Shown: one piece after another, positions 1,929-37,509 of the stretch
Numbering within the stretch: position 1 is the stretch's first letter
How the letters are laid out: every line of letters begins with the position of its first letter
From: Candidatus Azambacteria bacterium GW2011_GWA2_42_9
Lineage (GTDB): Bacteria; Patescibacteriota; Minisyncoccia; UBA10092
Reading direction: 5' to 3'
NCBI GenBank assembly: GCA_000994805.1
Contig: LCEQ01000004.1
Location: forward strand, 1 to 37,509
Length of the DNA stretch: 37,509 bases
Position numbers and translations under genes: made by a program
The notes under the pieces: model-generated
What the model was told of the DNA's origin: nothing
Database searches by the model: none
The model's input: the letters and a program-made list of their open reading frames with translations, nothing else

Positions 1929-4900
1929 ATGTTTATATTGAAACGGGAGGCATTGCCAATTAAACTGGCTCTCATAGCGGGAGCGGCGGCAATGGCTCTC
2001 AGTTTGACTTTAGTGGTGCCAAAAGCTGGTGCCGTAACCATCGCAGAGTTAATGGTCCAGATTCAGGCGTTGCAAGCTCAGCTTGTTCAATTGCAAGCTG
2101 GCAGCACCACAGCAACAACTGCCTGCACTTTCACTAAAAGTCTTTATTTGGGGGTCAGCGATCCTCAAGTGAAATGTTTACAGCAGTATCTTAACAGCGC
2201 CGGTTATCCGGTTTCGGCAAGCGGCGCGGGTTCAGTTGGTAATGAAACAAATTATTATGGTTCTCTAACCAAAGCGGCCGTTGCCAAGTGGCAAGCGGCT
2301 ATGAATGTAAGCCCAGCCGCGGGTTACTTCGGTCCGATTTCACAGGCTAAGTATTCCTCAGTTGCCGGCACAACCGGCGGCACAACCGGCGGAGTTGTTA
2401 CTTCTCCAGTTGGCGGCGGTTTGAGTGTTGGCTTATCGGCCACAACTCCGGCTGCAAGATCACATGTCGTTGGCGCGGCTAACATGCCGTTCGGCCGATG
2501 GACTTTCACGGCCGGTTCCGGCAATGTGACTGTCACCTCTTTGAAATTCACCCGCTCGGGCATCTCTGCCGACGCGGAAGTCAGCAATGCTGAACTTTTC
2601 CAACAACCACACAATGGCTTGGGGTTTGAACGCGGCGGCTGATGTGGTTTCAAACGCTTCAAGCGTTTCCGGAACATTTCCGGCAACTTCAAACGCGATG
2701 ACCTTCGTTTCGGTTACCGACCCGGCGATTGCCACTTTGACCTCTGCCGTCGTTACAACCGGCTCCTCGGTCAATGCCGGTACCACCGGATATCTTGCCG
2801 GTTCATTCACTTTAGTGGCGGCAAACAGCGCGGTTTTGCTTGACAGAATTGTTATCACCCAGAACGGTTCAATAATTTCAGGCACCGATGTTACTAATGT
2901 TAAATTGGTAACCACCGGTGGCCAGCAACTTGGCAGTGTTTTGCCGAACTTAAGCGCTGACGGCAAGGGCACGTTTGTAATGTCTCCGGCTTATGAAATT
3001 CCTTCGGGCCAGACCATTCAGGTTAACGTTTATGCCGATGTTGTCGGCGGCGTTAATAGGACATTAATATTCAATGTTCTTAACCTTCGCGACCTTCAGG
3101 CGCGCGACAAGACCTATAATGTAGGCGTTTCCCCGTCAGCAACTCTCGCTTTAACAACAACCACAGTTGAAGCCGGCACATTAACCTTGACTCTTGACCC
3201 GTCAAGCCCGACTGGCAATATCGCCCCGAGCCAGACCAACGTTACCGTATTAAAGGTGAAAGTGGTCGCTTACGGCGAACAGGTTAAGGTTTTGTATATT
3301 CCGTTTCAGATTGTAACTGGCGGAGGTACAACCGATTTCACCGGCCAGGTTGACAATATCTATATGGTTGACGATGCCGGAAATCAGATTGGCACGACAA
3401 TTACTGCCGCTGACAGTTCGGTGGCCGCGGGCGGAACGTGGGACAATAATGACTCCACGGCTGCCACTTTCGGCACCTCATCTTCAAACATCAACTACCT
3501 GATTCCGGCCAACACGACCAGAATCTGGAGCTTAAAACTTGATGTCGTGTCAACGGCTTCGAGCACGATGACCACCAGCTTGGTGGCTGGCACCAACAAT
3601 TACCAGGGCCAGATTTCCAACGTTTCAACCGGCGACACGACCGCGGTTGGCGGCAACCAACTAACCATCACTTCCAGTCCGTTCCAGGCCAAGCAGAACA
3701 GCGCGTTCGGCGCGGGCAATATAGTGAAAGGCCAGACGGCCGCGAAAATCGGTTCATTCGTCCTTTCGGCTTCATCGGCTGAAGGCATTAATGTATCAAC
3801 TATTACCCTGACATCGTCTTCAACTTTCCCGTTTGCCAACCTTATGATTAAGGTAAACGGCGTCCAGTTTGGCGACAACAAGGGCTCGCTTCTGGCCGCA
3901 ACTGACTACACCTTTGCCGGCACTTCCCCGGTATTAATTCCTGCCGGCGGCAGCGTTACGGTTGACGCGTATGTTGACGTCTTAACCAGCGCTACCGCTC
4001 TCGGCTCCTCAACTTATGTTAAGTTGGACAGCGCTTCGGCTGTCGGCGCGCTCACCGCTTCTTCACAGACCTTGAAGACAACTGGCGGTGATAATGTTGA
4101 TAACAGCAACGACATTGCCGGCCAGAGCTTCACGGTTAACACAACCGGCGGCACAATGACGATTGCCAAAGACGCCGCTTCCCCGGCCTCTTATCAAGCG
4201 GTCATGGGCAAGACCGGTCAGTCGCTCGGTATCTGGAGGTTCACCGGCTCCGCGGTTTCAGACACCAACATCACCGATATGACAGTTACGGCCAGCACTT
4301 CGGTATCCTGTTGTTGTTTCCGGTACCGCTTCCGGCACTGCCGGCGCGGAAACCGGTTACTCTTACACCTACCACTTCACCAGTCCGCTTGTCATTCCGA
4401 TGAACACCGGCGTTTCTATGGAACTTCGCGGCAATGTGGCTTCGTTCCTTTCTGGCGGTTCCACTTCAAACGGGCAGTACATATTTAGAATTGAGAGTCC
4501 GGATGATGTAACGGCGTTATCTTCAGGCGGGTCGCTTTCCGTGACTGTTTCCGGTCCTAACGGCGGCTCCGGCATGGATGTCAACGCGATTACGGTTGTA
4601 AGGACAAAGTTGTCCGTAGCTTCGTCTGCCACTTATGGCGGCGGCGCTAACACTATAGCAACAACCGGCCACGCGCCGAGCGCGGCAGATGTCGTCGCGG
4701 CGTTTGTCTTTACCGCTGATTCGGCCAACGATGTTGTGATTAACACCGTTTCACTAAAGCTTGCCGGTTCAACTCTTGTTACTTTGACGGTTAAACTTAT
4801 TGACGACGAAACCGGTTCGGCGTGGGGTTCAACTCCTGCCGCTGGTTTGCAGCATGGTATTCCGACTAACGTCGGCGCGATTTCAACCGCTGCCGGAACC

Positions 4901-5194
4901 TCCACGGTTATCTTTAGGCCGGCCTACACCCTGTCGGGTAGCGCGACTAAGAAAGTTCGCGTTCAGGTTGACTCAACCGGTTTGACCACTACTTCAGGCA
5001 CCACGAATGGTTCATTAGTCCAGTTCTATCTGGATAACACCACGAGTGGTAGCGCGGAAGCCGGCAATGACGGTAACATTATTCAATGTTCAATAGTCAC
5101 TTGTAATGCAACCGGCTGGAACGATGGCGACACCGGCGGTCTCAACCTTGAGGCCAAGGTCTTACCGATCTATGCTCCGGCAGTTCGTTACTAA
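1929..5194 (+). pseudogene. Surface-layer-like cell-envelope protein of about 1,090 codons in three frames (two +1 frame changes: real pseudogene, population variant or sequence error)
   Basis: Three overlapping ORFs are 1929-2642 (start position mod 3 = 0), 2587-4488 (mod 3 = 1) and 4400-5194 (mod 3 = 2), with continuous protein-like sequence across both junctions. Features are an N-terminal signal/TM segment (LALIAGAAAMALSLTLVVPKAGA), the coiled coil AELMVQIQALQAQLVQLQ, a PG_binding_1-like segment (LYLGVSDPQVKCLQQYLNSAGY...YYGSLTKAAVAKWQ), then at least five T/S/G/A/V-rich modules of about 130-150 aa. Shift 1 lies near CTTTTCC at about 2598-2604. Shift 2 lies between 4283 (the upstream stop in the new frame) and about 4312. 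A strong terminator follows. Confidence 0.7.
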
Positions 5195-5340: not shown

Positions 5341-7341
<2,001 letters not shown>

Positions 7342-13223: not shown

Positions 13224-14469
13224 AAAAGTATTTTTTAAATGGTGGTTAGCGGCGGCGCTTTTATACCTGATATTTGCGGGGGTTATTACTTATTTCTATG
13301 GTACCGGATTTTTAATGCCGCTTGGTGACGACACGGGACACCACATTCGGTTGGCGAAAAATCTTATTGATTATGGTGTTTTTTCTTTAGACGGCCTTGA
13401 CAGCAAACATTCCACAATACCGCTGCGGCCGACTAATTTTTTGACTCCGGGGTATGCTTTCTGGCTGGCATTTATTTATATTATTTTCAAATCTTTCACA
13501 CCCGCAATTTTTATAGGTGTTTTAATTTTCGCCCTTTCTGTTCCTCTAACATATTTTCTGGCAGAGAAAATTATAAATAACAAAAAAATCGCTTTTTGGG
13601 CGACCCTGATTTTTATGTTTGAACCCCTCTCGATATATCACTCGGGACTTCTTTTTACCGAGCAATTATTTGTGCCGATATTTTTAGTGGCTGTCTATTT
13701 TTTTATAGCGCATCTAAGGCGCGACAATAAAAAGTTTTTGGCGGCCTCGCTATTATTATTTTCGGTTTCAGTTCTGATTCGCCCGATCATTTTTTATTTT
13801 TTACCCGTTTTAATTTTAATCAATATTTTTAAAGAAGCGAAAACTTCCTGGTGCAAGGCGTTGATTATGGGGATTGTATTGGCAGTTTTGGCGTATTCGG
13901 TGGCTGGGGTCTGGGTAATTCGCAATAAAATTATCCTTAACACATGGCAGATTTCGAGCAATCAGGGAGCGATTTTAGTGTCTCATTACGGACTGGTGGC
14001 AAGGAAATTGGAAAAAAGCAGTTTTGATCTTCCGTCTTTCGCGTACGAATCAAATAATTTTTTAACAGAATATAATAATAATCTGGGCAAAGCGGCGTTA
14101 AAGGAATTGGCCAAAAATAAACTGGCATATTTGGAGGTCAAATTTAGTTATCTGCCCGTTTTTTTTCTGACTAATGGCTATAACAACCTATTTAGCCGTT
14201 TAACCGGTCGTTCGGAAAATTTTGTTTTTTTAATCGGAGTGCTGATCTGGGTGGTGATAAGCCTCCTTGGTTTAATTGGTCTGTGGCGCTTATTTATGTC
14301 GGACCGAAAAACGCAAGTGATTTTTGCAGTATTTTTAATTTTATATTTTGCGCTTATTGCTTCACCGATAGTAACGTCGCGCTATCGTTTGCCGCTTAAT
14401 CCATTTATTTTTATTTTTGCTGTAAGCGGATTTTATTTTTTGCGCGATAAAATAAAACAATGGATATAA
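13210..14469 (+). CDS. GT-C-type (ArnT/PMT_2-like) polytopic membrane glycosyltransferase
   Basis: 419 aa with about 10 or more hydrophobic segments. After TM1 there is an acidic loop, GDDTGHHIRLAKNLIDYGVFSLDG...RPTNFLTPGYAFWLAFIY, typical of family 39/83 lipid-phosphate-sugar-dependent transferases. Confidence 0.65.
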   Translation: MTENKKVFFKWWLAAALLYLIFAGVITYFYGTGFLMPLGDDTGHHIRLAKNLIDYGVFSLDGLDSKHSTIPLRPTNFLTPGYAFWLAFIYIIFKSFTPAIFIGVLIFALSVPLTYFLAEKIINNKKIAFWATLIFMFEPLSIYHSGLLFTEQLFVPIFLVAVYFFIAHLRRDNKKFLAASLLLFSVSVLIRPIIFYFLPVLILINIFKEAKTSWCKALIMGIVLAVLAYSVAGVWVIRNKIILNTWQISSNQGAILVSHYGLVARKLEKSSFDLPSFAYESNNFLTEYNNNLGKAALKELAKNKLAYLEVKFSYLPVFFLTNGYNNLFSRLTGRSENFVFLIGVLIWVVISLLGLIGLWRLFMSDRKTQVIFAVFLILYFALIASPIVTSRYRLPLNPFIFIFAVSGFYFLRDKIKQWI

Positions 14470-15338
14470 GCAGAAAAACATTTATTTTGACAATCCTCGG
14501 GTTAATTCTTTTGAGAATCCTTCTTGTTGTTCTCGTTATGAACAATATTCCGTTTACCGGGATGACGGCTGGTGGGTTCAGACCGACTTTCACCGAATCA
14601 TATCAACCGGATGAGTTGCAATATTTTAAATTAACTGAAGGGTTGATAGCCGGTCGCTCGGAAAAATTAGTTCCCAATATTGGCGCCTCGCTGATTTTTG
14701 CGCCGTTTATTTATTTCACCGGCGCTTCTTTGCCGGATGAACTCGCCAAATCCGTTTTTATTTTTGAAGCATTTATACTGTTTTCTCTCGCATTAATATT
14801 GGTTGCCCTGATTGCTGAAAAATTATTTAATTCGCGAAAGTTGGCGGTTATAAGCGTTGCGCTATTTTCCGTCTATCCCTGGGTGTTACTCCTGATTTTC
14901 AATCTTGCGGGGTATAAAAATGCGATTCCGGCATTTCATTATCAGCTTTGGATTTTTATATTGTCCGACTATCTTTCGGCTTTTTTAGTCTATCTTGGCT
15001 TTTTCCTGATTTTTAAATGGTTTAAGAATATTTTTGAAAGCTTGGCAATAAATTGGCAAGAATTAATAATTATCGCGGTTGTTAGCGGGGCGGCGATTTT
15101 AACGCGGATGGGCAATTTTTGGCTGATTTTAATTATTTTTTCTACATTCTTATATTTCAGCCAATTCAAAAAAGCCGCCCTATATGGATTTTTCTTAGGG
15201 TTGGCTTATTTGCCTCAATTAATATTTAATATAGCGGCGTTTGGCGCGCCTTGGGCCTTTGGTTACAGAGATCCCCTGGTCGGCGCGTCGACATCGTCTA
15301 TTCCGCTCGCGCAATGTGATTTTCTGTTTCGGTTATAA
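14460..15338 (+). CDS. GT-C-like polytopic membrane protein (possibly truncated or frameshifted at its 3' end)
   Basis: 292 aa and multi-TM. An acidic first loop, YQPDELQYFKLTEGLIAG, follows TM1. The last ~7 codons (CDFLFRL*) may be out of frame; see the 15352-15528 entry. Confidence 0.55.
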   Translation: MDISRKTFILTILGLILLRILLVVLVMNNIPFTGMTAGGFRPTFTESYQPDELQYFKLTEGLIAGRSEKLVPNIGASLIFAPFIYFTGASLPDELAKSVFIFEAFILFSLALILVALIAEKLFNSRKLAVISVALFSVYPWVLLLIFNLAGYKNAIPAFHYQLWIFILSDYLSAFLVYLGFFLIFKWFKNIFESLAINWQELIIIAVVSGAAILTRMGNFWLILIIFSTFLYFSQFKKAALYGFFLGLAYLPQLIFNIAAFGAPWAFGYRDPLVGASTSSIPLAQCDFLFRL

Positions 15339-15351
15339 ATATCTTTCGAAA

Positions 15352-15528
15352 ATGAATAAAAAATTTGCTTTGATAACGGGGGCGTGGTTTTGGTCTTATT
15401 TAATTTTTTATGGCTTATTTGACGAGTCGTTGAGCCAACTTAGATACTTTCTTCCGGCCATTCCGGTCTTTATTTACTTTTTTATAGGATGTCTGCTATA
15501 TTTATGGAATAAAATTAAACTAAAATAA
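15352..15528 (+). CDS. Small 2-TM membrane ORF, or the displaced C-terminus of the 14460 gene
   Basis: This frame is open from 15241. From about 15312 it reads membrane-like sequence, NVIFCFGYKYLSKMNKKFALITGAWFWSYLIFYGLF...AIPVFIYFFIGCLLYLW. An internal ATG lies at 15352, and the ORF ends 2 nt before the next gene. Confidence 0.35.
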   Translation: MNKKFALITGAWFWSYLIFYGLFDESLSQLRYFLPAIPVFIYFFIGCLLYLWNKIKLK

Positions 15529-20566: not shown

Positions 20567-20573
20567 TTTGCGA

Positions 20574-21458
20574 ATGAAAAAAATACTTATCATTGGTTCA
20601 ACCGGAATGTTAGCTTTTGATTTAACGCGGGTTTTTAAGGAGGATTATGAAGTAATCGGCGTTAGCCGCGCCGATTTTGATATTACGGACAAATCGGCGG
20701 TTGAAAATTTTACTAAAAATCATATGCCCGACATTGTGATAAACACCGCGGCTTACCATAAAACCGAAGAGTGCGAATTAAATCCTGAAAAAAGTTTCAG
20801 CGTTAATGCCATCGGCGCTTTTAATGCGGCAAAAGCTGCTAAAGAAATCGGCGCTAAAATAATTTTTATAAGCACCGATTATGTTTTTGACGGGCGCAAA
20901 GAACATTACTCAGAATCCGACGCTCCCAATCCGCTCAATGTTTACGGCGCGTCAAAACTTGCCGGAGAAATTCTTACAAAAATTGCCAATGATAATTTTT
21001 ATATAATCAGAACCAGCTGGCTTTTTGGGATTCACAAATCGGGCAAGGGGCATAATTTTGTTTCTTTAATGCTTGAGAAAGCAAAAAATGGCGAAAATAT
21101 AAAAGTAGTTGACGACCAGTTCGGCTCCCCGACTTATACTTATGATTTAGCGGCAAAAATAAAAGAACTGATTGAGAAAAACGCGCCGGCTGACATTTAT
21201 CACATCACCAATACAAGCTCCTGTTCTTGGCATGAACTCGCCGAAAAAATTTTTGAGCTGGTGAAATTAAATCCGAAAATTGAAAAAATAAAATCAAGCG
21301 ATCGGCCGTCAAGCGTCAAAAGGCCGAAATACTCGGTTTTAATAAGCGAAAATCTAAAAAAGCAGGGGATAGACAATTTGCGTCCTTGGCCGGAAGCCCT
21401 ATCCGCCTATCTTGACGAAATAAAAAAAGCGTGTAAAATGCTCATTACCGTAAAGTAG
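20574..21458 (+). CDS. rfbD: dTDP-4-dehydrorhamnose reductase family protein
   Basis: MKKILIIGSTGMLAFDL..DITD..VINTAAYHKTEECE..ISTDYVFDG..YGASKLAGE..IIRTSWLFG is the typical RmlD pattern. I prefer the ATG at 20574 to the TTG at 20568. Confidence 0.8.
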   Translation: MKKILIIGSTGMLAFDLTRVFKEDYEVIGVSRADFDITDKSAVENFTKNHMPDIVINTAAYHKTEECELNPEKSFSVNAIGAFNAAKAAKEIGAKIIFISTDYVFDGRKEHYSESDAPNPLNVYGASKLAGEILTKIANDNFYIIRTSWLFGIHKSGKGHNFVSLMLEKAKNGENIKVVDDQFGSPTYTYDLAAKIKELIEKNAPADIYHITNTSSCSWHELAEKIFELVKLNPKIEKIKSSDRPSSVKRPKYSVLISENLKKQGIDNLRPWPEALSAYLDEIKKACKMLITVK

Positions 21459-27875: not shown

Positions 27876-28895
27876 ATGAAATTTTTAATCACCGGAGGGT
27901 GTGGTTTTCTTGGGACGAATATTTCGGAAGCCCTTCTTAAGCAAAATAAAAAACTGATTATTTTTGATAATTTATCTCGGATTGGATCGGAGCAAAATTT
28001 AGATTGGTTGAAACATAGAGGAGAATTCAGATTTATAAATGGCGATATTCGCAACCAGAATGATATTGAGGCGGCTATTATTGCCGAACAGCCGGATGTT
28101 GTGATTCACTTAGCGGGTCAGGTTGCTATGACTACTTCAATTGAAAATCCAAGAAAAGATTTTGAAATAAACACCTTAGGATCATTTAATCTTCTCGATT
28201 CAGTTCGGAAATATTCGCCTCGCTCAATAATTATTTATTCGTCTACTAATAAGGTTTATGGCGACCTGGAGTGGGTCAGATATGAAGAAAAAGAAAAAAG
28301 ATATATTGCTCCGGACTTTCTCTTGGGTTTTGGGGAAGATACTCCGCTTCAATTTTCTTCCCCGTATGGTTGTTCAAAAGGAAGCGCTGATCAATATTTT
28401 ATTGATGCATATCGGATATTTGGCATTAAAACCGTAGTTTTGCGGCATTCTTCTATGTTTGGCGAAAGACAATTTTCAACATTTGATCAAGGATGGATTG
28501 GTTGGTTTTGCGAAAAAGCTCTCGAAACCAAAAAGGACATCCTTAACATACCGTTCACAATATCCGGCAATGGGAAACAAGTTCGGGACGTCTTATTTGC
28601 CGGTGATATGGTTAATTTATATTTTTTATTAATTGATAATATTGAAAAGGTTAAGGGTCAATGTTTTAATATTGGCGGGGGAATGAATAATAGCCTCTCT
28701 CTGTTGGAACTATTTGATATTTTAGAAAAGGAATTAAAAATTAAACTAAAATACACCCGCCTTGAAGCCAGGAAAAGCGATCAGAAAATATTTGTAGCCG
28801 ATCTTACAAAAATAAAAAACATGACCAGTTGGGAGCCAAAAGTGGATAAAGTTGAGGGTATTAAAAAAATACTTGAGTGGATTCAAAATAAATAA
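27876..28895 (+). CDS. rfbE: CDP-paratose 2-epimerase-like SDR (tyvelose-epimerase family)
   Basis: 339 aa. MKFLITGGCGFLGTN..IFDNLSRIGSEQNLDWL..HLAGQVAMTTSIENP..YSSTNKVYGDLE..SPYGCSKGSADQY..FDQGWIGWFCEKA..FTISGNGKQVRDVL closely follows the Salmonella RfbE sequence as I recall it. Confidence 0.75.
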   Translation: MKFLITGGCGFLGTNISEALLKQNKKLIIFDNLSRIGSEQNLDWLKHRGEFRFINGDIRNQNDIEAAIIAEQPDVVIHLAGQVAMTTSIENPRKDFEINTLGSFNLLDSVRKYSPRSIIIYSSTNKVYGDLEWVRYEEKEKRYIAPDFLLGFGEDTPLQFSSPYGCSKGSADQYFIDAYRIFGIKTVVLRHSSMFGERQFSTFDQGWIGWFCEKALETKKDILNIPFTISGNGKQVRDVLFAGDMVNLYFLLIDNIEKVKGQCFNIGGGMNNSLSLLELFDILEKELKIKLKYTRLEARKSDQKIFVADLTKIKNMTSWEPKVDKVEGIKKILEWIQNK

Positions 28896-28903
28896 TACGC
28901 ACC

Positions 28904-29599
28904 ATGGTAGTATTAAGCGTTGCCATTCCTTCTTACCAAGAAGAAAAAAACCTAAAAGTTATTTTACCTAAATTACTTTCAGTGTTGGATAAAATTGAAC
29001 CATCATACGAGGTTCTTATTGTTGATACCATGGAGCCAATGGATAAAACTAAAATTTTATGTTCTACTTTTGGCCTTCGTCTTAGATACTTAAATCGAAA
29101 AAAAGTAAATAGTTTTGGTAATGGCGTTAGAACCGGCATCGCAGAAGCTCAAGGAAAATATATTATTTTTATGGATGCTGACGGTTCTCATGATCCGGAA
29201 TTTATTAGTGAACTTTATAAATATAAGGATGAATTTGACGTTGTCATTGCTTCTCGCTATATTACCGGTGGTGCAACAAAGAATAGTAAAATATTAATTT
29301 TCATGAGTCGAGTGGTTAATTTAATTTATTCTTTTGTCTTAAATTTAAATTGCTACGACGTTTCTAATAGTTTCAAATTGTACAAAACCGGAGATTTAAA
29401 AAAACTTAAACTTTCATGTAGCAATTTTGACATTGTAGAGGAAATTCTTTTTAAGCTGAAAAGAGATAATAAAAATCTGACAATAAAAGAAGTACCATTC
29501 ACATTTGATAAAAGAATGTTCGGCAAGACAAAGAGAAATTTATTTATCTTTACACTAACCTATATATATACGTTGATTAAATTGAGATTTAGTAAATAG
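28904..29599 (+). CDS. GT2-family polyprenol-phosphate glycosyltransferase (Dpm1-like), second copy
   Basis: 231 aa. LSVAIPSYQEEKNL..YEVLIVDT..GNGVRTGIAEAQGKYIIFMDADGSHDPEFI. Confidence 0.7.
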   Translation: MVVLSVAIPSYQEEKNLKVILPKLLSVLDKIEPSYEVLIVDTMEPMDKTKILCSTFGLRLRYLNRKKVNSFGNGVRTGIAEAQGKYIIFMDADGSHDPEFISELYKYKDEFDVVIASRYITGGATKNSKILIFMSRVVNLIYSFVLNLNCYDVSNSFKLYKTGDLKKLKLSCSNFDIVEEILFKLKRDNKNLTIKEVPFTFDKRMFGKTKRNLFIFTLTYIYTLIKLRFSK

Positions 29600-29611
29600 G
29601 GTTAATCAGCA

Positions 29612-30712
29612 TCAATCCTTTGCCCACCCCGCAGATATCAGTTTAGCATCATGTATATAATCATATAAATCATTTTCACTTAGAATTTTTTTATTATCAT
29701 AATAATTTTTGTACCAGTTTATTGTTTTTTCAAGAGTCTTGTCTTGATTCCACACATTTTTCCACTTGAGTTTTGTGCGCGCCTTTGTCGAATCCAGCTT
29801 GAGAAAATTTGCTTCGTGAAAACAACTAGCATTTTTTTCTATTTTATATTTCACGGCGTCCCAATGTTTTTTGGTCCGTTCAACAATCTCGCTTACAGCC
29901 AAGGAAGAATCGTCTTTTGGTCCAAAATTCCAATTGTCTGAAAATTCTTTTTTTCCCTCTAATAATTTCCAACCCAATTGCAAATAACCGCTTAACGGTT
30001 CTAATACGTGTTGCCAAGGCCTTGTTGCGTGGGGATTTCTTACAATTACACATTTACCCACATTTGCCAATTTAACTATGTCCGGAATTAATCTGTCTTT
30101 CGCCCAGTCACCGCCACCAACAACATTCCCGGCCCTTACATTGGCAAGCAAAACATTATGGGTATTGCCATATTCGTTGCGATTAAAAAAAGAATTTCTA
30201 TATGAGTGGGCTATTAATTCCGCACATCCTTTTGAGGCGCTGTATGGATCATATCCCCCCATTGGATCATCTTCTTTATAACCCCGGGCCCACTCTTGGT
30301 TTTTATAGCATTTATCACTGGTGATGTTAATTATCGCTTTAACCGCTTTTGTTTTTCTGCAACTTTCTAATACATTGAGGGTTCCTATAATATTTGTTTC
30401 CAATGTTTTTGCGGGGGTTGCATATGACTCTATTACCAATGGTTGGGCGGCCAAATGAAAAACAATATCGGGTTTCTCCGTTTCAATTGTTTTTAATAGT
30501 CTTTCTTTGTTTAAAATATCATCGAAAACAGAAATTATATTGAGATGTAATAATTCAAAATGACTTGGATTTGTTGGTATACCCATTGAATAACCGATAA
30601 CTCGTGCGCCCAATTTGGAAAGCCACAATGAAAGCCAAGATCCTTTAAATCCCGTATGGCCGGTAATCAAGACCTTTTTCCCTTTATAAATATTATTAAA
30701 TAATTTATTCAC
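29612..30712 (-). CDS. rfbG: CDP-glucose 4,6-dehydratase
   Basis: 366 aa. YKGKKVLITGHTGFKGSWLSLWLSKLGARVIGYS..HLAAQPLV..YSASKGCAEL is the RfbG hallmark N-terminus and catalytic YxxxK. Confidence 0.85.
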   Translation of the reverse strand: MNKLFNNIYKGKKVLITGHTGFKGSWLSLWLSKLGARVIGYSMGIPTNPSHFELLHLNIISVFDDILNKERLLKTIETEKPDIVFHLAAQPLVIESYATPAKTLETNIIGTLNVLESCRKTKAVKAIINITSDKCYKNQEWARGYKEDDPMGGYDPYSASKGCAELIAHSYRNSFFNRNEYGNTHNVLLANVRAGNVVGGGDWAKDRLIPDIVKLANVGKCVIVRNPHATRPWQHVLEPLSGYLQLGWKLLEGKKEFSDNWNFGPKDDSSLAVSEIVERTKKHWDAVKYKIEKNASCFHEANFLKLDSTKARTKLKWKNVWNQDKTLEKTINWYKNYYDNKKILSENDLYDYIHDAKLISAGWAKD

Positions 30713-30716
30713 TATT

Positions 30717-31493
30717 TTATTCCCAGATTTTCCAGAAAGGTTTTCCCTCGCTCCACAATTTATTTAAATGTTTTAGGTCGCGTTCTGTATCTACGCATTC
30801 CCATTCGCCAATATGTTTATAAACCATAATTTCTCCCGATTTTGCTAATTCCCCAAAAACACCACTTTCCAGATCGCAATTTTCGTCTTCAGTTAAATAA
30901 TTTAATAATCTTTTATCAAAGACAAAAAAACCACCATTAATTAGACCGGCTGATGTTTGCGGTTTTTCGTGAAATGAAACTAATTTTAAATTATCCTCAA
31001 TTATTTCTCCAAAACGAGAAGGCGGATGCACGCCCGTGATGGTAAGTATTTTACCGTGAGATTTGTGGAATTTTATAAGTTCGTCAATATTAATATTTGC
31101 GACGCCATCGCCATACGTAAGCATGTTTAAACCGTCATCTAAATATTTTTCTAATTTTTTTAGTCGCGCTCCTTTTAATGTATTTAATCCGGTATCCACA
31201 AGTGATATTTTCCAATCCATTTCATCGTGGGAATTAAGAGTTTTTATTTCTCTTGGGCCCAAATGAATATTAAAATCATTATTATAAATATGATAATTAT
31301 GAAAATATTCTTTTATTACCTCCTGTTTATATCCCAAGCCTATAATAAAATCCTTGTGGTTATAATGCGAGTAAAGTTTCATTATATGCCAAATAATAGG
31401 CCTATGACCCACCATTGTCATCGGCTTTGGTATCGTTTCTGTTATGTTGCCTAGACGAGTTCCGTAACCCCCCGCCATAATAATTACCTTCAT
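30717..31493 (-). CDS. rfbF: Glucose-1-phosphate cytidylyltransferase
   Basis: 258 aa. MKVIIMAGGYGTRL....IPKPMTMVGHRPIIWHIMKLYSHY..KDFIIGLGYKQEVIKEYF is highly RfbF-like. Confidence 0.85.
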   Translation of the reverse strand: MKVIIMAGGYGTRLGNITETIPKPMTMVGHRPIIWHIMKLYSHYNHKDFIIGLGYKQEVIKEYFHNYHIYNNDFNIHLGPREIKTLNSHDEMDWKISLVDTGLNTLKGARLKKLEKYLDDGLNMLTYGDGVANINIDELIKFHKSHGKILTITGVHPPSRFGEIIEDNLKLVSFHEKPQTSAGLINGGFFVFDKRLLNYLTEDENCDLESGVFGELAKSGEIMVYKHIGEWECVDTERDLKHLNKLWSEGKPFWKIWE

Positions 31494-31504
31494 GTTCTTT
31501 GTTT

Positions 31505-32728
31505 TTATTTATAATTGGATAAAAATTCTATAAATTTTGTCTTTAGATATGCAATTTGGTTTGGCGCTAAACCTTGGTGGCAGCCAACCACAAGGGCGTT
31601 GCGCATTATTCGTTCGGCGTTCGGATAATTTTTCTGCGCTAAGCGGTGTGTAATTTTTTTAAAACCCGGCTGTTTTAAGACATTGCCGGTAAATATTGGC
31701 CGAGTTTGGATATTGTTTTTTTCTAAAAAGGTTATTAGTTCCAAACGCGTAAAAGGAGCGTTTTCCCTGATGGTTAGAGGAAAAGCCAACCACACCGTTT
31801 CAGTCTGCGGAGTTTGGGCTGCAAGGGTAAAATATTTATTATATTTACTGAAAAACTTATATAATTCGGAAAAATTTCTTTTTCTAATCTCTTTAAATGC
31901 TGGAAATTTTTTTAATTGTTCCAAAGCGAAAGCGGAGGAAAGTTCTAATGGTAAAAAATTATAGCCCACCTCACTAAATATGAATTTATTGTCATATGGT
32001 ATACCCGCGAGGTTTTGTGTAAATCGATTTTTCAAAAGTTCAGAATTTGTTTTTTCACCGAATAGGGAAGATTGCCTTCCCCATCCGCGCATAACCACCA
32101 GGCGATCTACCCAATTTGGATTGTTGACGCAAATCATTCCACCTCCGCCGGCGCCGTTTATAACATGAGAACCATAAAAACTTGTTGTTGAAATATGCGA
32201 ATATACGCCGGTCGGTTTTTTATTGTATTTCCCCCCTAAAGTGTCGCAAGAATCTTCAATAAACCACAATTTATATTTTTTAGAAAGTTTCGCCAATTTT
32301 TCCATATTGGGAATATTCCCCATCAAAGAAGGAATCATAAGCACTTTCGTTTTTTTGGTAATCGCTTTTTCTACTTGTTTTATATTTACCAGATATGCGC
32401 CTTCATCAACATCTACAAAGACGGGCACTAATCTTTTTTGGACAATTGGCGCAAGAGTAGTGGCAAAAGTTAAAATAGGAGTAATCACCTCACTACCCTC
32501 AGGTAAGTTTAAAAGTTCAAATGCGAGTAAATTTGCCGAAGATCCGGAATTGACCATTACTCCATATTTTTTTCCGAACATTTTTGCTATTTTATTTTCA
32601 AATTCTTTAGTATGGTCACCAAGAGCAGTATTATTTTTGAGTACTTTTACCACAGCACCAATTTCTTCCTTGCCGTGGCAGGAATGGCCATATGGTACTC
32701 TGATCTTGGATTGAGCTTGTTTATTCAT
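31505..32728 (-). CDS. rfbH: NDP-4-keto-6-deoxyhexose 3-dehydratase of the DegT/RfbH/ColD family (active-site His instead of Lys; no Fe-S Cys motif)
   Basis: 407 aa. KYGVMVNSGSSANLL, WFIEDSCDTLGG, SFYGSHVINGAGGGG (no Schiff-base Lys; His present), GYNFLPLELSSAFALEQLKKFP and TRPIFTGNVLKQP. The region aligned to the DCYCAPGCDNTCG motif of Salmonella RfbH reads GWGRQSSLFGEKTN and has no Cys. Confidence 0.75.
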   Translation of the reverse strand: MNKQAQSKIRVPYGHSCHGKEEIGAVVKVLKNNTALGDHTKEFENKIAKMFGKKYGVMVNSGSSANLLAFELLNLPEGSEVITPILTFATTLAPIVQKRLVPVFVDVDEGAYLVNIKQVEKAITKKTKVLMIPSLMGNIPNMEKLAKLSKKYKLWFIEDSCDTLGGKYNKKPTGVYSHISTTSFYGSHVINGAGGGGMICVNNPNWVDRLVVMRGWGRQSSLFGEKTNSELLKNRFTQNLAGIPYDNKFIFSEVGYNFLPLELSSAFALEQLKKFPAFKEIRKRNFSELYKFFSKYNKYFTLAAQTPQTETVWLAFPLTIRENAPFTRLELITFLEKNNIQTRPIFTGNVLKQPGFKKITHRLAQKNYPNAERIMRNALVVGCHQGLAPNQIAYLKTKFIEFLSNYK

Positions 32729-32774
32729 TGATAAAATTTATCATATAGTATAAATTAATTAAAGACAAGCTAAC

Positions 32775-34508
32775 GTGTTTTTCTTGAAAAAAATTAAAAC
32801 ATTAATAAAAAAACATTATTCAGCAATTATTTTGACGCTGCTTTTAGGGGCCTTGATGGTTTTGCCATTTTTTTATTTTCAAATAAACCTCGGAAATAAT
32901 TTCAAGGGGATTCTGCCGGCAGTTGTGAATGACGAGGATTTTTATTACGCGCGCGTAAAAGACGTTTTGGATGGACACCCCTTTTTAAGTAATGCCTACC
33001 TTTTTGAGCATAAAGACGGATTGCCGCAGCAATTATTTTTAGCCGAATGGCTTTTGGCCCAACCGGTAAAGCTTTTAAACATCGGTATTAATACGGCGCA
33101 TTTGGTTTATAACTTTTTATTGCCGGCCATTGCCTTTATTTTAACTTATCTCGCGCTGTATTTAGTATCAAAATCCCGATTTTGGTCTATTATTGCTTCG
33201 GTATTTCTGTTTTTTGGTTTATATCTCACAAGTTTTATCCGTCCGGTAAGCCCCCAATTTAATTTCATTTTCTGGCTCTCGCAGCTTATTTTTTTATGGC
33301 GTCTTTTGGAAAAGCCGGAATCTAAGAAATTATTATTTTTAAACATTTTTAATTTTGGACTTCTATTTTATATCTACCCATATTATTGGACGTTTTATTT
33401 AATATTTTTTGGTCTTTTGATTGTTGGTTATTTTTGGGAAAACAGAGAAATTGCTTTTAAAATCGCCGCTATTGCTGGCGGCGGTTTAATTCTAGCTATT
33501 CCTTATTTTTATCTTAATTATTTGGCCGCTAAACTGCCCTATTATGAAGAAACTCTCACGCGGTTGTTCATGATTTATACGCGGTTTCCTTCCGGATTCT
33601 GGATAGTTTTTTGGAGTTTTTTTGGGCTGGTTTTTTTGGGCTGGTTTTTATGGAAAAAAATTATAAATTTGGATATTAAGTCGCTCTTTTTCATTTCCGG
33701 CGTTTTGGCAAACGTTGTCGCGGTCAACCAGCATTTGATAACCGGCAAAAATTTTGAATTTTCCAGCCACTATGATATGGCCGCAATGTTTTTTTTGGTT
33801 TTTACCGTTGCTTACTTGATTGGAAATTATTTGAAGAAATTATCAAATACTGCAATACATCGCTGTATTGCAGTATTTGCAGTTTTAATATTAGCAGTCA
33901 CGGTGTTTTATGGAATATTTGATTATTCAAAAAGAGCCTTTGTCATTGATGAAAATGCGGTATATCGGCAAAATTATACACCGGTTTTTGAATGGCTGAA
34001 TAAAAATACCGAAAAAGACTCGGTTGTTTATGCCAATTCGGATTTGTCGCGGCTGATCCCGGTTTATACGGCCAATAATGTCTTTTACGTCCGCGAGGCC
34101 AATTTATTTTTCATTTCCGATAAGGAAGTTTTGGACAGGTTTATTTTGAATAATTTTTTTTCCGCCTTCGGCAAAGATTTTATTATTGAAAACGATCGTT
34201 CGGTTTATGGCGTTAGATATATTGATGCTTATGGCCACACTGTTCAAGCAAATAAACTGCGCCGGCTTTTGGGGCTAAAAACCGAGCCGGAAGTTTATTT
34301 GCCCGAAGAGGCAATTCAGAAAGTTATCGGCCGAGCCGCGGAATTACAAAAAGGGAATTTTGTGGAAGAAATAAAAAATTACCGTATTGATTATTTAATT
34401 TGGGATAAAAATAAAAATCCGGATTGGGAAGTAAATTCTAAAAATTTTAAACCCATTTTTTTAAGCGGCGATTTGATTATTTTTAAATCTGCGTATTTAA
34501 GTCTATGA
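32775..34508 (+). CDS. Large polytopic membrane protein, GT-C-like candidate, with a soluble C-terminal domain
   Basis: 577 aa with a GTG start. TM1 is followed by the acidic loop AVVNDEDFYYARVKDVLDGHPF. There are about 11 hydrophobic segments and a ~190-aa soluble C-terminus. Confidence 0.4.
   Translation: MFFLKKIKTLIKKHYSAIILTLLLGALMVLPFFYFQINLGNNFKGILPAVVNDEDFYYARVKDVLDGHPFLSNAYLFEHKDGLPQQLFLAEWLLAQPVKLLNIGINTAHLVYNFLLPAIAFILTYLALYLVSKSRFWSIIASVFLFFGLYLTSFIRPVSPQFNFIFWLSQLIFLWRLLEKPESKKLLFLNIFNFGLLFYIYPYYWTFYLIFFGLLIVGYFWENREIAFKIAAIAGGGLILAIPYFYLNYLAAKLPYYEETLTRLFMIYTRFPSGFWIVFWSFFGLVFLGWFLWKKIINLDIKSLFFISGVLANVVAVNQHLITGKNFEFSSHYDMAAMFFLVFTVAYLIGNYLKKLSNTAIHRCIAVFAVLILAVTVFYGIFDYSKRAFVIDENAVYRQNYTPVFEWLNKNTEKDSVVYANSDLSRLIPVYTANNVFYVREANLFFISDKEVLDRFILNNFFSAFGKDFIIENDRSVYGVRYIDAYGHTVQANKLRRLLGLKTEPEVYLPEEAIQKVIGRAAELQKGNFVEEIKNYRIDYLIWDKNKNPDWEVNSKNFKPIFLSGDLIIFKSAYLSL
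33617..33644 (+). repeat. Exact 14-nt tandem duplication (TTTTTTTGGGCTGG x2, plus a partial third) inside the membrane-protein CDS
   Basis: TTTTTTTGGGCTGG TTTTTTTGGGCTGG TTTTTA.. read directly. It encodes FFGLVFLGWF. The unit contains a T7 homopolymer and its length is not a multiple of 3. Confidence 0.9.
33845..33878. repeat. 34-nt hairpin palindrome inside a CDS, related to the 28-bp palindromes at 36943 and 37406
   Basis: AAATACTGCAATACA-TCGC-TGTATTGCAGTATTT has 15-bp perfect arms. The core TACTGCAATACA..TGTATTGCAGTA differs from TACTTCAATACA..TGTATTGAAGTA by a paired T>G / A>C change that preserves the stem. Confidence 0.8.
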
Positions 34509-36867
34509 GCCGAAATAAAGGGATTATTGTTTTGATATTTTTTATCGCTATTTTGTCGGGGATTTTTTGGAATCAAAAAATATTCGGCCAGCCGATAAGT
34601 TCCGATCAATTGGGCTATGACGGCATTGCCATGGACATATTAAGCAGCGGCCGGTTTACCAGTCAAGGCCAGTCGACATTCAGAGAACCGGGCTATCCTT
34701 TGTTTTTGGCGGCAGTTTATAAGATTTTTGGCCATAATTTTGATACTGTCAGATATATTCAGATTATAATTTTTGGACTATTGGTGGTTATTATTTATCT
34801 TTTTACCGAAAATATTTTTGGCCGAAATGTCGCGATTTTTTCAAGTTTAAGCGTGGCATTTTTTTACGGCCTTGCCAATCAATCCGGTTTAATTACGACA
34901 GAACTTTTATTCGCGTTTTTACTTAGTCTTTTTGCGTACTCTATTTATAAAGCGTCGGCGGAAGACGGTAATAACTGGCTGGTTTTTTCTGCGCTGGTTT
35001 TGGGAGGCGCGACTCTGGTTAGGGGTGTGGCCGAATTTTTGTTTTTTTTAGTTATTGTTAATCTTTTTATAATTTATAAAAACAAAATTTCGTATAAGAA
35101 GATTTTTTACAAAATCGCGATTTTTACTATTTGTTTTTTTATGGTTTTAACGCCCTGGCTTGTAAAAAATAAATTTAAAAACGGCATTTCCGTTTCATCG
35201 TTTACCGGCTATTATCTATTGTTGCAAACCGAACGAATAAAAGAATTGTATCCGCATTATTCCGGTCATTTTATAGGTTACTTTCTTGGTTATTATGTTT
35301 CGGAGCGGTTAAATTTTGATACCGGCCCCGGCGATAATAAATATTTTTCTTATTTTGAGAGCCCGATTCAGTCAAGGATAGCGCAGCTTATTGCCGCGGG
35401 CTATGATTACGGCGATATCAGCAATGTTTTTACCAAAGAAGCCCTGCCCCAAATTGTTAAGCACCCCGTGCAATTTTTATCGGTGTCGGCGCTGAATTTT
35501 TTCAGTTTCAATGGTCCGATTTTAATACGGGGGCCGCTTTGGCAAAACGGGGCCGATCTCTCTCCCCAGTTTGCCGACGGTCGCCATCCAGAAATTCCTG
35601 ATTATCTGAAACTGATTATCATTCTGACCCCGCGCCTGCTGTGGTTTTTATTTTTCTTTTTTACAATAAAATCAATAGTAAAAAATCTTTGCGACTGGGA
35701 AAAAGTCGGTTGGCTTGTTTTAATAATCATTTATTTTAATATTATATACAGCGCGTCTTCAGGACTCAATCGCTATGCTCTGCCGATTTATCCCTTTTAT
35801 ATGATTTTTGCCGTTGCCGGAATGCAGGATTTTTTAAGCCGGCGGATTGTCGTGAAATTAAAAAACGCATCGATTTTGGCGCTTGCGGTCGCTAAGTTTG
35901 TTTTTAAAGGCAGAGCCGATAAAAAAATAATCCCCAAAAAAATTTTAATAGTTCAGGAGGCTAGAATGGGAGATATGGTTTGTACAACTCCGATGTTTCG
36001 GGCTGTAAAGGAGAAATATTCAGAAATTCGGCTTTACGTGATGGGGAATGAAATAAATAGAGAATTATTATCTAGCAATCCCGACGTTGATGTTTATTTA
36101 ATCTATCCTAAAAATCTTTATGGACTTTTTAAAATAATCAAAAAAGAAAAGTTTGATTTTGCCTGCATTACAGCTCCTAATTTTACGGCTTTGGCCGCCT
36201 TATATTTAGCGGATATTCCTTTGATTGCCGCGCCCGTTATTGAAAATGGTTTCAGCCCGTATGAAACCCGTCCCTATAAAATTTCACGCAGTTTTGTAAC
36301 CACAAGTTCGCAGAGGCATTTTTGGCAAAAAACGGCATAAACTTCGATTCAGATTTTATTGTTGGCATAACTCCGTCGGCCGGAAGTAAAATTAAAGAAT
36401 GGCCTTGCGACAGGTTCGCCAAGCTTGCTGACTATATTTATAGTAAATATCAGGCTAAAATCATAATTATCGGCGGACCCGGCGATGTTGAGGTTGATGA
36501 AATGATAAGTTTTTTGGCGGAGAATACGAAGTTTGTCAACGCCAAGGGGCTTTTTGATATTGAAGAGTTGAAAGCATTGGTGTCAAAACTGCATCTTTTC
36601 ATCAGTGTTGACACCGGTCCAATTTATATCGCCGAGGCCTTTAATGTTCCGACCATTGATATTATCGGGCCTATGGATGAAAATGAACAGCCGCCTATGG
36701 GCAAATTCCACAAGATTGTCGTTGCTCAAAGGTTAAAACCAGCGTTACATATAATGAACGCCCGCGTTTATGACGCCAAGGAAGTCCGTCGGCAGGCCGA
36801 ATCAATCACGGTGGAGATGGTCATAAAAGAATTGGATAATTTAATGGATAAAATCTCAATTTCATGA
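34505..36867 (+). pseudogene. GT-C (ArnT/PMT_2-like) membrane domain fused in frame to a GT9 (heptosyltransferase-like) domain; the GT9 part is split by a -1 frame change near 36280-36300
   Basis: In ORF 34505-36340, aa 1-~445 are polytopic GT-C-like (SSDQLGYDGIAMDILSSGRF...FREPGYPLFLAAVYKIFG). From about aa 470 comes the GT9 N-terminal half, KKILIVQEARMGDMVCTTPMFRAVKEKY. ORF 36322-36867, in another frame that is open from 36280, carries the GT9 C-terminal half (IVGITPSAGSKIKEWPCDRFAKLADYI..IIIIGGPGD..LFISVDTGPIYIAEAFNVPTIDIIGP). An internal ATG at 35822 could start a separate GT9 product. Confidence 0.65.
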
Positions 36868-36942
36868 AAATATCTGATAAGGGATATTTGAAATTTGAGA
36901 AATAATACACCAATGTTATATAATAAACATTATGTTATAAAC

Positions 36943-36970
36943 TACTTCAATACAGCGCTGTATTGAAGTA
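36943..36970. repeat. 28-bp perfect palindrome 12 nt upstream of the YerC/TrpR-like gene (operator or 5' hairpin candidate)
   Basis: TACTTCAATACAGCGCTGTATTGAAGTA equals its own reverse complement. It lies downstream of TTGAGA(36895-36900)-18 nt-TATAAT(36919-36924). Confidence 0.9.
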
Positions 36971-36981
36971 AAATAAAAATT

Positions 36982-37398
36982 ATGCCGCATGTATCGCAAA
37001 ATCCAATAGACAAAAATACGCTATATAAAATAAGCGAAAAATTATTTAAGGCAATTAAACATTTAAAGCGAGAAAAAGAAGCGGCGCAATTTTTATCAGA
37101 TTTATTGACAAAAACAGAACGCATCATGCTTGCCAAGCGGTTGGCGATTATTATCATGCTGGACGCAAACTATCCATTTAAAGTTATAAGCAATGCTTTA
37201 AGAGTGAGCGAAGCCACAATTAGTGTTATGAGAGACAGATTTGATCGCGGTGGAGGCGGTTATAATTTAGTTATCGGCCGTCTTAAAAGGGAAGCAATGT
37301 GGCGGGAATTTTTTAAATCTTTAGAAAAAATACTGCAACCGGATTTTTTACCGCCGATAACTGGCAGGGGTCGCTGGCGCCACGTTAAGAAAATTTGA
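36982..37398 (+). CDS. YerC/YecD-like TrpR-family DNA-binding protein
   Basis: 138 aa. FLSDLLTKTERIMLAKRLAIIIMLDANYPFKVISNALRVSEATISVMR matches the TrpR-like YerC/YecD pattern (DLLT..E....A.R......L..G.....I......S..TI.R). Confidence 0.7.
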   Translation: MPHVSQNPIDKNTLYKISEKLFKAIKHLKREKEAAQFLSDLLTKTERIMLAKRLAIIIMLDANYPFKVISNALRVSEATISVMRDRFDRGGGGYNLVIGRLKREAMWREFFKSLEKILQPDFLPPITGRGRWRHVKKI

Positions 37399-37405
37399 AA
37401 ACAAA

Positions 37406-37433
37406 TACTTCAATACAGCGCTGTATTGAAGTA
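37406..37433. repeat. Second identical copy of the 28-bp palindrome, 8 nt after the YerC-like stop (terminator-like; T-run 5 nt downstream)
   Basis: TACTTCAATACAGCGCTGTATTGAAGTA is followed by AAGCGTTTTTAT. Confidence 0.9.
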
Positions 37434-37509
37434 AAGCGTTTTTATCTAATTTATCCAAGTTTTGGTTTTAAAATTAAGTAAGGTTAAGTTATGAAAATTT
37501 GTTATCTGA

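Follow-up and report, generated by a model that had tools for sequence, protein, structure and literature searches.

Extracytoplasmic glycosylation systems of monoderm bacteria work in three steps, and GtrA/B/C and ArnC/ArnT belong to the same kind. In the model described for lipoteichoic acid in Listeria, a cytoplasmic glycosyltransferase of the GT-A/GT2 type makes a C55-P-sugar, a flippase moves it, and a membrane glycosyltransferase of the GT-C type transfers the sugar outside (PMC4944223). Here we analyze a locus in the 37,509-nucleotide (nt) contig LCEQ01000004.1 of Candidatus Azambacteria bacterium GW2011_GWA2_42_9 (this whole stretch is called the window below), in which a GT-C module is joined to a glycosyltransferase of family GT9. 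As in the three-step systems, the gene cluster pairs a small GT2 with a GT-C, both in the window and in two related loci (L005 and L007), and a GT2 is even fused to this GT-C in the relatives P0018 and P0025. The fused partner in the window is, however, a GT9 of the GT-B fold and not a GT2, and no GtrA-type flippase was detected. We conclude, with a probability of about 80%, that the locus encodes one bifunctional membrane glycosyltransferase, a genuine in-frame GT-C and GT9 fusion whose break in this contig is most likely an assembly artefact, of this member of the Patescibacteria (candidate phyla radiation, CPR), ultra-small bacteria of groundwater.

The GT-C and GT9 modules lie in one open reading frame

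The locus contains the following features.

ORF1 (open reading frame 1): 34505..36340, plus strand; ATG start, 611 amino acids (aa); PMT_2 (GT-C) domain and N-terminal half of GT9.
ORF2: 36322..36867, plus strand; TTG start, 181 aa, in a different frame; C-terminal half of GT9.
GT-C (PMT_2-type) membrane module: 34505..35839, plus strand; about aa 1-445, with about 10 predicted transmembrane helices; placed by Pfam PMT_2, hydropathy, and a model of the relative P0003.
Junction: 35768..35908, plus strand; a single predicted helix of 47 residues, aa 422-468, from DSSP on the AlphaFold2 model and comparison with unfused relatives.
Internal ATG (Met440): 35822..35824, plus strand; matches the start position of stand-alone GT9 homologues.
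GT9 N-terminal Rossmann domain: 35909..36304, plus strand; aa 469-600, motifs MGDMVCTTP and SPYET; assigned by homology, alignment, and fold match to 3TOV, WaaF, and WaaC.
Breakpoint: 36306..36307, plus strand; 115 nt of the sibling assemblies are absent and the frame changes (blastn against L001-L004).
GT9 C-terminal (nucleotide-sugar binding) domain: 36304..36867, plus strand; motifs PSAGSKIKEWP, VDTGPIYIAEAF, and EQPP; ORF called from TTG 36322.

A preliminary description of this DNA, made from the sequence alone, had read the 611-codon ORF as a PMT_2-like part followed by the N-terminal half of a GT9 enzyme, and both parts are seen in the ORF and in the Pfam and homology data. The PMT_2 match covers aa 62-215 of ORF1 (55.9 bits against a cut-off of 26.1), and the Glyco_transf_9 match falls in ORF2 (67.3 bits against 22). 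The last third of ORF1 has no separate match in the Pfam scan; homology to stand-alone GT9 proteins and the fold match of an AlphaFold2 model identify it as the N-terminal Rossmann half of GT9.

The best database match to the window product is P0001, an 825-aa protein annotated as "Glycosyl transferase, family 9" from Candidatus Azambacteria GW2011_GWB1_42_17 (GenBank KKS44910.1), on which both Pfam domains (PMT_2 and Glyco_transf_9) are recorded. It is identical to the window product save for 38 additional residues at positions 601-638, RPHRMGNYAAREYLRLLEPIGIFSKDTEKYLYFSEMAM. Residues 440-825 of P0001 are covered to 96-98% in alignments with more than 900 stand-alone GT9 proteins, each about 385 aa long. 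On Pfam PF01075 the intact P0001 scores 68.7 bits against a cut-off of 22, so that the C-terminal part, which the preliminary description had assigned to GT9, is upheld by the profile as well as by its fold.

The window copy is broken by a 115-nt gap

A stretch of 115 nt (L001 7803-7917) is absent after window position 36306 and present in the sibling loci L001-L004, as seen by blastn. Outside this gap, the window is about 99.85% identical to these loci over 28505-37509, with 12 single-nucleotide polymorphisms (SNPs) relative to L001 in 7.8 kb. Because 115 nt correspond to 38 codons plus 1 nt, the reading frame changes. The preliminary description had placed a -1 shift near 36280-36300; the frame change is actually at 36306/36307 and is caused by the missing 115 nt. 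The segment lost from the window (residues 601-638 of P0001) includes the most conserved motif of the GT9 subfamily in an alignment of seven fusions. When the window protein is reconstructed with a -1 shift it has 787 aa, 38 short of P0001, so neither a ribosomal frameshift nor a 1-nt correction restores the enzyme.

Comparison with the sibling contigs revealed four such gaps in the window.

After 2598: 140 nt missing; breaks the PG_binding_1 surface protein, intact in siblings at 1154 aa.
After 4308: 59 nt missing; breaks the same PG_binding_1 surface protein, intact in siblings at 1154 aa.
After 15316: 92 nt missing; breaks an unnamed protein, intact in siblings at 386 aa.
After 36306: 115 nt missing; breaks the GT-C and GT9 fusion, intact in siblings at 825 aa.

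None of the four lengths is divisible by 3, and each broken gene is intact in siblings that are 99.85-100% identical to the window. The surface protein gene (window 1929-5194) is split into three ORFs by its two gaps, whose flanks match L096, L097, and L099 over 9 kb at 100.000% identity, and the gene for the 386-aa protein (window 14460-15528) is split into two ORFs. The window sequence contains no N. Among database records, the 611-aa product comes from this contig only, and 825-aa forms are found in seven other cluster members from NCBI, JGI, and ENA assemblies. Since four deletions on the scale of read lengths occur with essentially no substitutions, the missing 115 nt are most likely an assembly artefact, a collapsed scaffold gap rather than a real deletion, and the gene of the organism itself is most likely the intact 825-codon form found in the siblings. 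The split gene models that result from the four gaps now sit in NCBI and UniRef, which calls for caution among users of public contigs. For the ORF at window 20568-21458 no database record turned up, probably owing to a different called start.

The fusion recurs in independent assemblies and in other Patescibacteria

The single ORF recurs in an NCBI genome contig, in k127 and k141 contigs, in NODE contigs, and in a Logan contig. A 77% identical orthologue, P0002, from another Azambacteria metagenome-assembled genome, is likewise encoded in a single frame of 825 codons. The junction segment of P0002, AG-FEKIVVVSRLKN, has Phe in place of Met440, contains no Met, and lacks ATG, GTG, and TTG codons, so the GT9 of P0002 would be made only as a fusion. 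An exhaustive HMMER search over 1.84 billion representatives yielded further full-length fusions, P0167 (821 aa, 47% identical), P0168 (845 aa), P0170 (813 aa), and P0171 (803 aa), all of them above both Pfam thresholds.

We also surveyed the loci of 80 species-level genomes that carry this GT9 subfamily, with an alignment of the seven fusions as the query. Essentially all of these genomes are Patescibacteria, with a few record titles that differ. Both domains lie in one stop-to-stop ORF at 3 of the 80 loci, namely, L015 (the locus of P0167), L027, and L029, the latter two matching custom profiles for both GT-C and GT9. The in-frame fusion that the preliminary description had proposed from one interrupted gene is thus borne out by intact copies in independent assemblies, by the 77% identical orthologue, and by full-length fusions elsewhere in the Patescibacteria, where the search for co-occurrence of the two domains returned proteins that pass either both Pfam cut-offs or both custom profiles.

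The same description had held that the architecture was not a described one. This stands insofar as we found no paper that discusses the fusion; a literature search on GT9 or heptosyltransferases in CPR/Patescibacteria and on GT-C/GT-B fusions returned nothing relevant. It does not stand for the databases: GenBank and UniRef have listed the intact protein, annotated with both Pfam domains, ever since the groundwater genomes of 2015.

The fusion appears to derive from neighboring genes

Other Azambacteria (L012, L013, and L016) encode GT-C (465 aa) and GT9 (386 aa) in two separate genes, which lie in different frames and share about 40 nt; in L011 and L018 a further gene lies between the two. 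Orthologues with separated frames had been named in advance as an outcome that would speak against a fusion. Such a separation is indeed seen in L012 and L016, but it shows an origin from neighboring genes, not an error. The internal ATG at 35822 is present as described, and the Met440 that it encodes aligns with the start of the stand-alone GT9 proteins from L012-type loci. The closest GT-C relative, P0003 (85% identical), ends about 12 residues past the fusion point and is followed by an epimerase gene. Judged from these comparisons, the protein arose when two neighboring genes, a pair with an overlap in some near relatives, merged in frame.

In its GT9 region P0001 shares 68-83% identity with stand-alone proteins, compared to 47-56% with five other full-length fusions from Patescibacteria, whose GT-C modules are only 23-41% identical to that of P0001 (23-26% for P0168, P0170, and P0171). 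Since fused and unfused forms are interleaved in identity, fusion or fission occurred several times. Other fusion partners of this GT9 subfamily are GT4 (P0195 and P0212), a methyltransferase (P0221), and, via a cupin domain, a kinase (P0172). Glycan-pathway genes of Patescibacteria seem unusually prone to fusion.

One further protein, P0012 (655 aa; L010 173-2140), was considered as a third fusion and rejected because it lacks the catalytic N-terminal half of GT-C; we used it as junction evidence only. It combines a complete GT9 with the GT-C residues from about 185 onward, the C-terminal membrane half. Upstream of it all frames have stops and too little sequence is left to hold the catalytic half; the evidence comes from one 2.9-kb contig with about 4.5x coverage. 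The GT9 of P0012 may need only a membrane anchor.

The GT-C module and the predicted topology

AlphaFold2 modeling of P0001 with a 79-sequence alignment gave a predicted local distance difference test (pLDDT) score of 89.9 and a predicted template modeling (pTM) score of 0.72. Because GT-B matches crowded out GT-C matches in the Foldseek list for the full-length model, the stand-alone GT-C protein P0003 was modeled separately (pLDDT 90.9, pTM 0.90). At E<1e-3, the P0003 model matches GT-C enzymes only, namely, STT3, AglB, PglB, ArnT, Pmt, and ALG3, and the GT-C module scores 55.9-58.2 bits on PF13231 against a cut-off of 26.1. SSDQLGYDG (aa 32-40) in the first outside loop contains the putative catalytic Asp; D34, Y38, and R423 are invariant or nearly so among 56 homologues, and in the model this loop carries helices 33-48 and 63-75. 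A sequence/profile search of the Protein Data Bank (PDB) with the GT-C half returned a marginal STT3 match only (E 0.011) and did not retrieve ArnT, and no ArnT model was among the NCBIfam matches of P0001 at E<=1e-5. The predicted structure thus resembles ArnT at the level of the fold only.

Hydropathy and the list of modeled helices predict about 10 transmembrane helices, with the N terminus inside, loop 25-86 outside, and the C terminus inside. The Lys/Arg-rich loops 192-201 and 389-400 are predicted to be inside and the large loop 222-365 outside; with the residues after 445, the two basic loops make up the positive-inside segments. In the DSSP assignment the last transmembrane helix runs unbroken (422-468) into an N-terminal extension shared with stand-alone GT9 proteins, after which a short basic linker connects to the first beta-strand, at 479. 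GT9 is therefore predicted to sit on the cytoplasmic side, as its chemistry requires. The preliminary description had asked on which side this domain would land, and hydropathy, the positive-inside rule, and the AlphaFold2 model agree on the cytoplasmic face.

The GT9 module and its possible donor

In the GT9 part of the P0001 model, the top Foldseek matches are 3TOV, 1PSW (WaaF), and 2H1H/2GT1 (WaaC), with target-normalized TM scores of 0.72-0.80, and a sequence search of the PDB finds 3TOV at E 2.7e-22. G489-D490, K669-x-W671, and D741-T742-G743 are invariant in the seven fusions. We take the corresponding GT9 motifs, the N-terminal G-D, the Lys of PGAxxxxKxWP, and the D-(S/T)-G of the C-terminal domain, to be the equivalents of WaaC residues. 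In the window these motifs are divided between two frames, with 38 residues missing. The fusion protein is neither a WaaC/F/Q equivalog nor ArnT proper.

Several relatives place a kinase beside this GT9 subfamily. In L012 the gene directly downstream of the unfused GT9 is an rfaE_dom_I kinase (336 bits against a cut-off of 345), and P0172 is a GT9-cupin-kinase fusion whose kinase is of the HldE type. On L005, the contig of P0002, the fusion is followed 5.5 kb downstream by a PfkB gene, a 148-aa fragment of which scores 214 bits with a two-sequence kinase profile, and PfkB-type kinase genes that match this two-sequence profile are within 4 kb of about 8 of the 80 GT9 loci. These relatives tie the GT9 subfamily to an HldE-type heptose-7-phosphate kinase and suggest ADP-heptose as a candidate donor; the linkage implies heptose metabolism in bacteria without lipopolysaccharide (LPS). 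Besides P0172, the GT9-linked entries with heptose-type kinases are L012 7139-8089, L016 6461-7411, and L024 3021-3980. The preliminary description had also reported no other LPS-core genes in the window; Pfam scans of all window ORFs of at least 90 aa agree, with no lipid A, Kdo (3-deoxy-D-manno-octulosonic acid), or other LPS-core genes.

Points against the reading and alternative explanations

Several observations weigh against a bifunctional enzyme of the kind proposed. GT-C is fused or adjacent to GT9 in only 5 of the 80 species-level loci, so functional coupling is not general. The NCBIfam equivalog cut-offs for the LPS heptosyltransferases I, II, and III and for RfaQ are far from reached (TIGR02201, 80 of 170 bits; TIGR02195, 74 of 135; TIGR02193, 45 of 185), and the donor may therefore not be heptose. 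Neither the window nor the following 6 kb on L001 contains a heptose-pathway gene (GmhA, HldE, or GmhB), and a search for the HldE-type kinase gave only the L012 and L005 lineages (at least 78% identity) before a drop to 59%, with none attributable to the lineage of the window. The topology comes from a crude hydropathy scan combined with AlphaFold2 secondary structure and not from a dedicated predictor. Finally, the gap junction has no flanking repeat and only 2 nt of microhomology, and we regard a genuine 115-nt deletion in a subpopulation as unlikely.

Were that deletion biological, it would have removed the HxMGxYAxREYLRLLEP segment and shifted the frame, so that the GT9 module would be knocked out in this strain, GT-C would keep a dead-end tail made of the GT9 N-terminal domain, and domain loss would be ongoing. 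GT-C alone does suffice in many close relatives (P0003-P0011, 72-85% identical, about 450 aa), in L007 an epimerase gene comes directly after GT-C, the short microhomology is compatible with illegitimate recombination, and the 12 SNPs show that the window and L001 differ in sequence. What tells against a deletion is that a single contig of 37.5 kb with four gaps of 59-140 nt, all of them out of frame, and almost no substitutions would show an implausible mutational spectrum, that two of the gaps sit within a stretch otherwise 100.000% identical to L096, L097, and L099, and that the gene is intact in all other assemblies of the population. The opposite error, in which sequencing or assembly joined two separate genes, is very improbable. 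The contig demonstrably has assembly defects, and genes arranged as in L012 and L016, with an overlap of about 40 nt between different frames, could be fused by a single-base error; the same single ORF is nonetheless found in differently named assemblies from different sources, and orthologues 77% and about 47% identical are also fused, as are proteins with GT-C subfamilies only 23-26% identical.

Two other explanations concern translation. The preliminary description had left open a GT9 translated separately from the internal ATG at 35822, which would be the ancestral start, with the read-through fusion minor or irrelevant. Met440 does stand at the start position of the stand-alone homologues, and since only 3 of the 27 window genes have Shine-Dalgarno motifs, the absence of one would allow initiation. 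Yet no stop lies between the modules, so each ribosome on GT-C proceeds into GT9; P0002 has Phe and no possible start codon in its junction segment, and the other fusions also lack Met there; and the genuine starts in the window have AT-rich leaders, but the 12 nt upstream of ATG 35822 are rich in GC. We consider separate translation quite unlikely. Programmed -1 ribosomal frameshifting that joins ORF1 and ORF2 has next to no chance of being correct. ORF2 is in the -1 frame relative to ORF1 with an overlap of 19 nt, but 38 conserved codons are absent, so no shift restores the protein, there is no X XXY YYZ slippery heptamer in the part open in both frames (36280-36340), and the siblings encode the protein in one frame. 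The reading that we prefer remains a genuine in-frame fusion, interrupted in the window by a collapsed scaffold gap.

The fusion gene lies at the end of a surface-glycan cluster

Most window ORFs with a family match are for surface-glycan synthesis, and the cluster fills most of the 37.5-kb contig, with the fusion at its end. The glycan genes comprise a Wzy_C and TPR protein, six GT4, two GT2, and three PMT_2-type GT-C genes, together with sugar-modification genes for RmlD-like reductases, dehydratases, a sugar C-methyltransferase, and RfbF/RfbG/RfbH-like CDP-hexose enzymes. Two neighbors bear on the fusion.

577-aa polytopic membrane protein: 32775..34508, plus strand; no Pfam or NCBIfam match; adjoins GT-C upstream in relatives.
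231-aa GT2: 28904..29599, plus strand; Pfam Glycos_transf_2; candidate polyprenyl-phosphate-sugar synthase.

The stop of the 577-aa gene overlaps the start of the GT-C gene by 4 nt in the window (where this is the fusion gene), L001, and L007; in L005 the two are adjacent with no overlap. Its product could be a flippase or a further divergent GT-C. The order GT2, membrane protein of about 566 aa, GT-C is kept in L005 and L007. The NCBIfam similarity of the 231-aa GT2 to AglJ, ArnC, and a dolichyl-phosphate hexose transferase is weak, with every score far below its cut-off, and this GT2 may supply the polyprenyl-phosphate-sugar donor for the GT-C module.

The RfbF/G/H-like genes (window 29612-32728, minus strand) lie between the genes for this GT2 and for the 577-aa membrane protein, a position at which L005 and L007 lack them. 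RfbG (CDP-glucose 4,6-dehydratase) scores 481 bits, above its cut-off, and the RfbF-like and RfbH-like proteins fall just below theirs; together these genes suggest a 3,6-dideoxyhexose. At the other end of the window, 1929-5194 has 52-55% GC compared to about 38% elsewhere and encodes a Thr/Ser/Gly/Ala-rich surface protein with a signal peptide and a PG_binding_1 domain, possibly an S-layer protein or the main glycoprotein substrate of the cluster. This gene accounts for the GC-rich stretch at 2-5 kb, for which rRNA was considered and rejected; Rfam and tRNA scans of the window found nothing. Adjoining the surface-protein gene is a gene (window 5341-7341) for a 666-aa protein with a Wzy_C membrane domain of the O-antigen ligase/polymerase type and C-terminal TPR.

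Sibling contigs that extend beyond the window carry GT4, methyltransferase, NUDIX, and phosphonate genes. The phosphonate loci (L001 11615-14478, L005 8515-12044, and L007 10829-13359) encode a phosphoenolpyruvate (PEP) mutase-cytidylyltransferase fusion and a TPP_enzyme_N/C and Fe-ADH fusion protein, with only a separate Fe-ADH gene called at the locus in L005. A phosphonate pathway beside the cluster suggests phosphonate-decorated glycans. In L012 (8086-11638) and L014 (8685-11746), one or two large carbamoyltransferases (Carbam_trans_N/C) and a teichoic-acid-type Glyphos_transf lie beside the GT-C/GT9 pair.

Proposed function

The topology, donors, and acceptors that we propose for the two modules are as follows. 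The GT-C module would act on the outer face, where it would pass a sugar to a surface polymer; its donor, a polyprenyl-phosphate-sugar, would come from the small GT2 nearby. At the cytoplasmic face, the GT9 module, carried on the helix continuous with the last transmembrane helix, would add a sugar from a nucleotide-sugar donor to an intermediate of the same pathway that is bound to the membrane. Fusion would tether a soluble GT9 to the membrane and fix a 1:1 ratio with its pathway partner.

A more far-reaching version is that the fusion is a two-sided glycosylation machine of an LPS-free bacterium, in which GT9 loads heptose or another sugar on a polyprenyl carrier inside and the flipped product is the donor or acceptor for its own GT-C. 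We hold this version to be doubtful; if true, it would be the first GT9 known to act on a non-LPS, polyprenyl-linked substrate and direct evidence for heptose-containing surface glycans in Patescibacteria.

Both modules come from known families, and the architecture is a lineage-restricted, recurrent fusion of neighboring genes. Patescibacteria have tiny genomes and depend on host contact, yet this contig is almost wholly devoted to surface-glycan genes. A recurrent fusion of an outward-facing GT-C with an inward-facing GT9 would mean that both steps belong to one pathway and would extend GT9 beyond LPS core synthesis. Together with the links between GT9 and heptose kinases in relatives, the fusion offers a testable handle on the composition and assembly of CPR surface glycans.

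Comparison with known systems

The GT9 module is like WaaC and WaaF of E. coli and 3TOV of Veillonella parvula in its GT-B fold (Foldseek probability 1.0), in exceeding the PF01075 threshold, in its N-terminal G-D, PSAGxKxKxWP, and D-T-G motifs, and in the link of its subfamily to an HldE-type kinase in relatives. It differs from them in being only 14-22% identical and below the equivalog cut-offs, and in having an N-terminal helix of about 30 residues and a fused membrane enzyme. The window has no genes for lipid A, Kdo, or the LPS core, and in relatives a teichoic-acid-type Glyphos_transf lies nearby, so Kdo2-lipid A is unlikely to be its acceptor.

The GT-C module shares PMT_2, the GT-C fold, and the first-loop Asp with ArnT (GT83), protein O-mannosyltransferases (GT39), and STT3/PglB/AglB (GT66). 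It differs from these enzymes in being short (about 445 aa), in its helical loop of about 145 residues predicted outside (aa 222-365), and in lacking a large C-terminal soluble domain; its predicted cytoplasmic C terminus bears a second enzyme instead. As a whole, the protein is like Rosetta-stone fusions such as HldE, a kinase joined to an adenylyltransferase, in that unfused, overlapping orthologous pairs exist in close relatives. In contrast to HldE, the parts joined here would be an integral membrane enzyme of the outer face and a soluble enzyme of the inner face.

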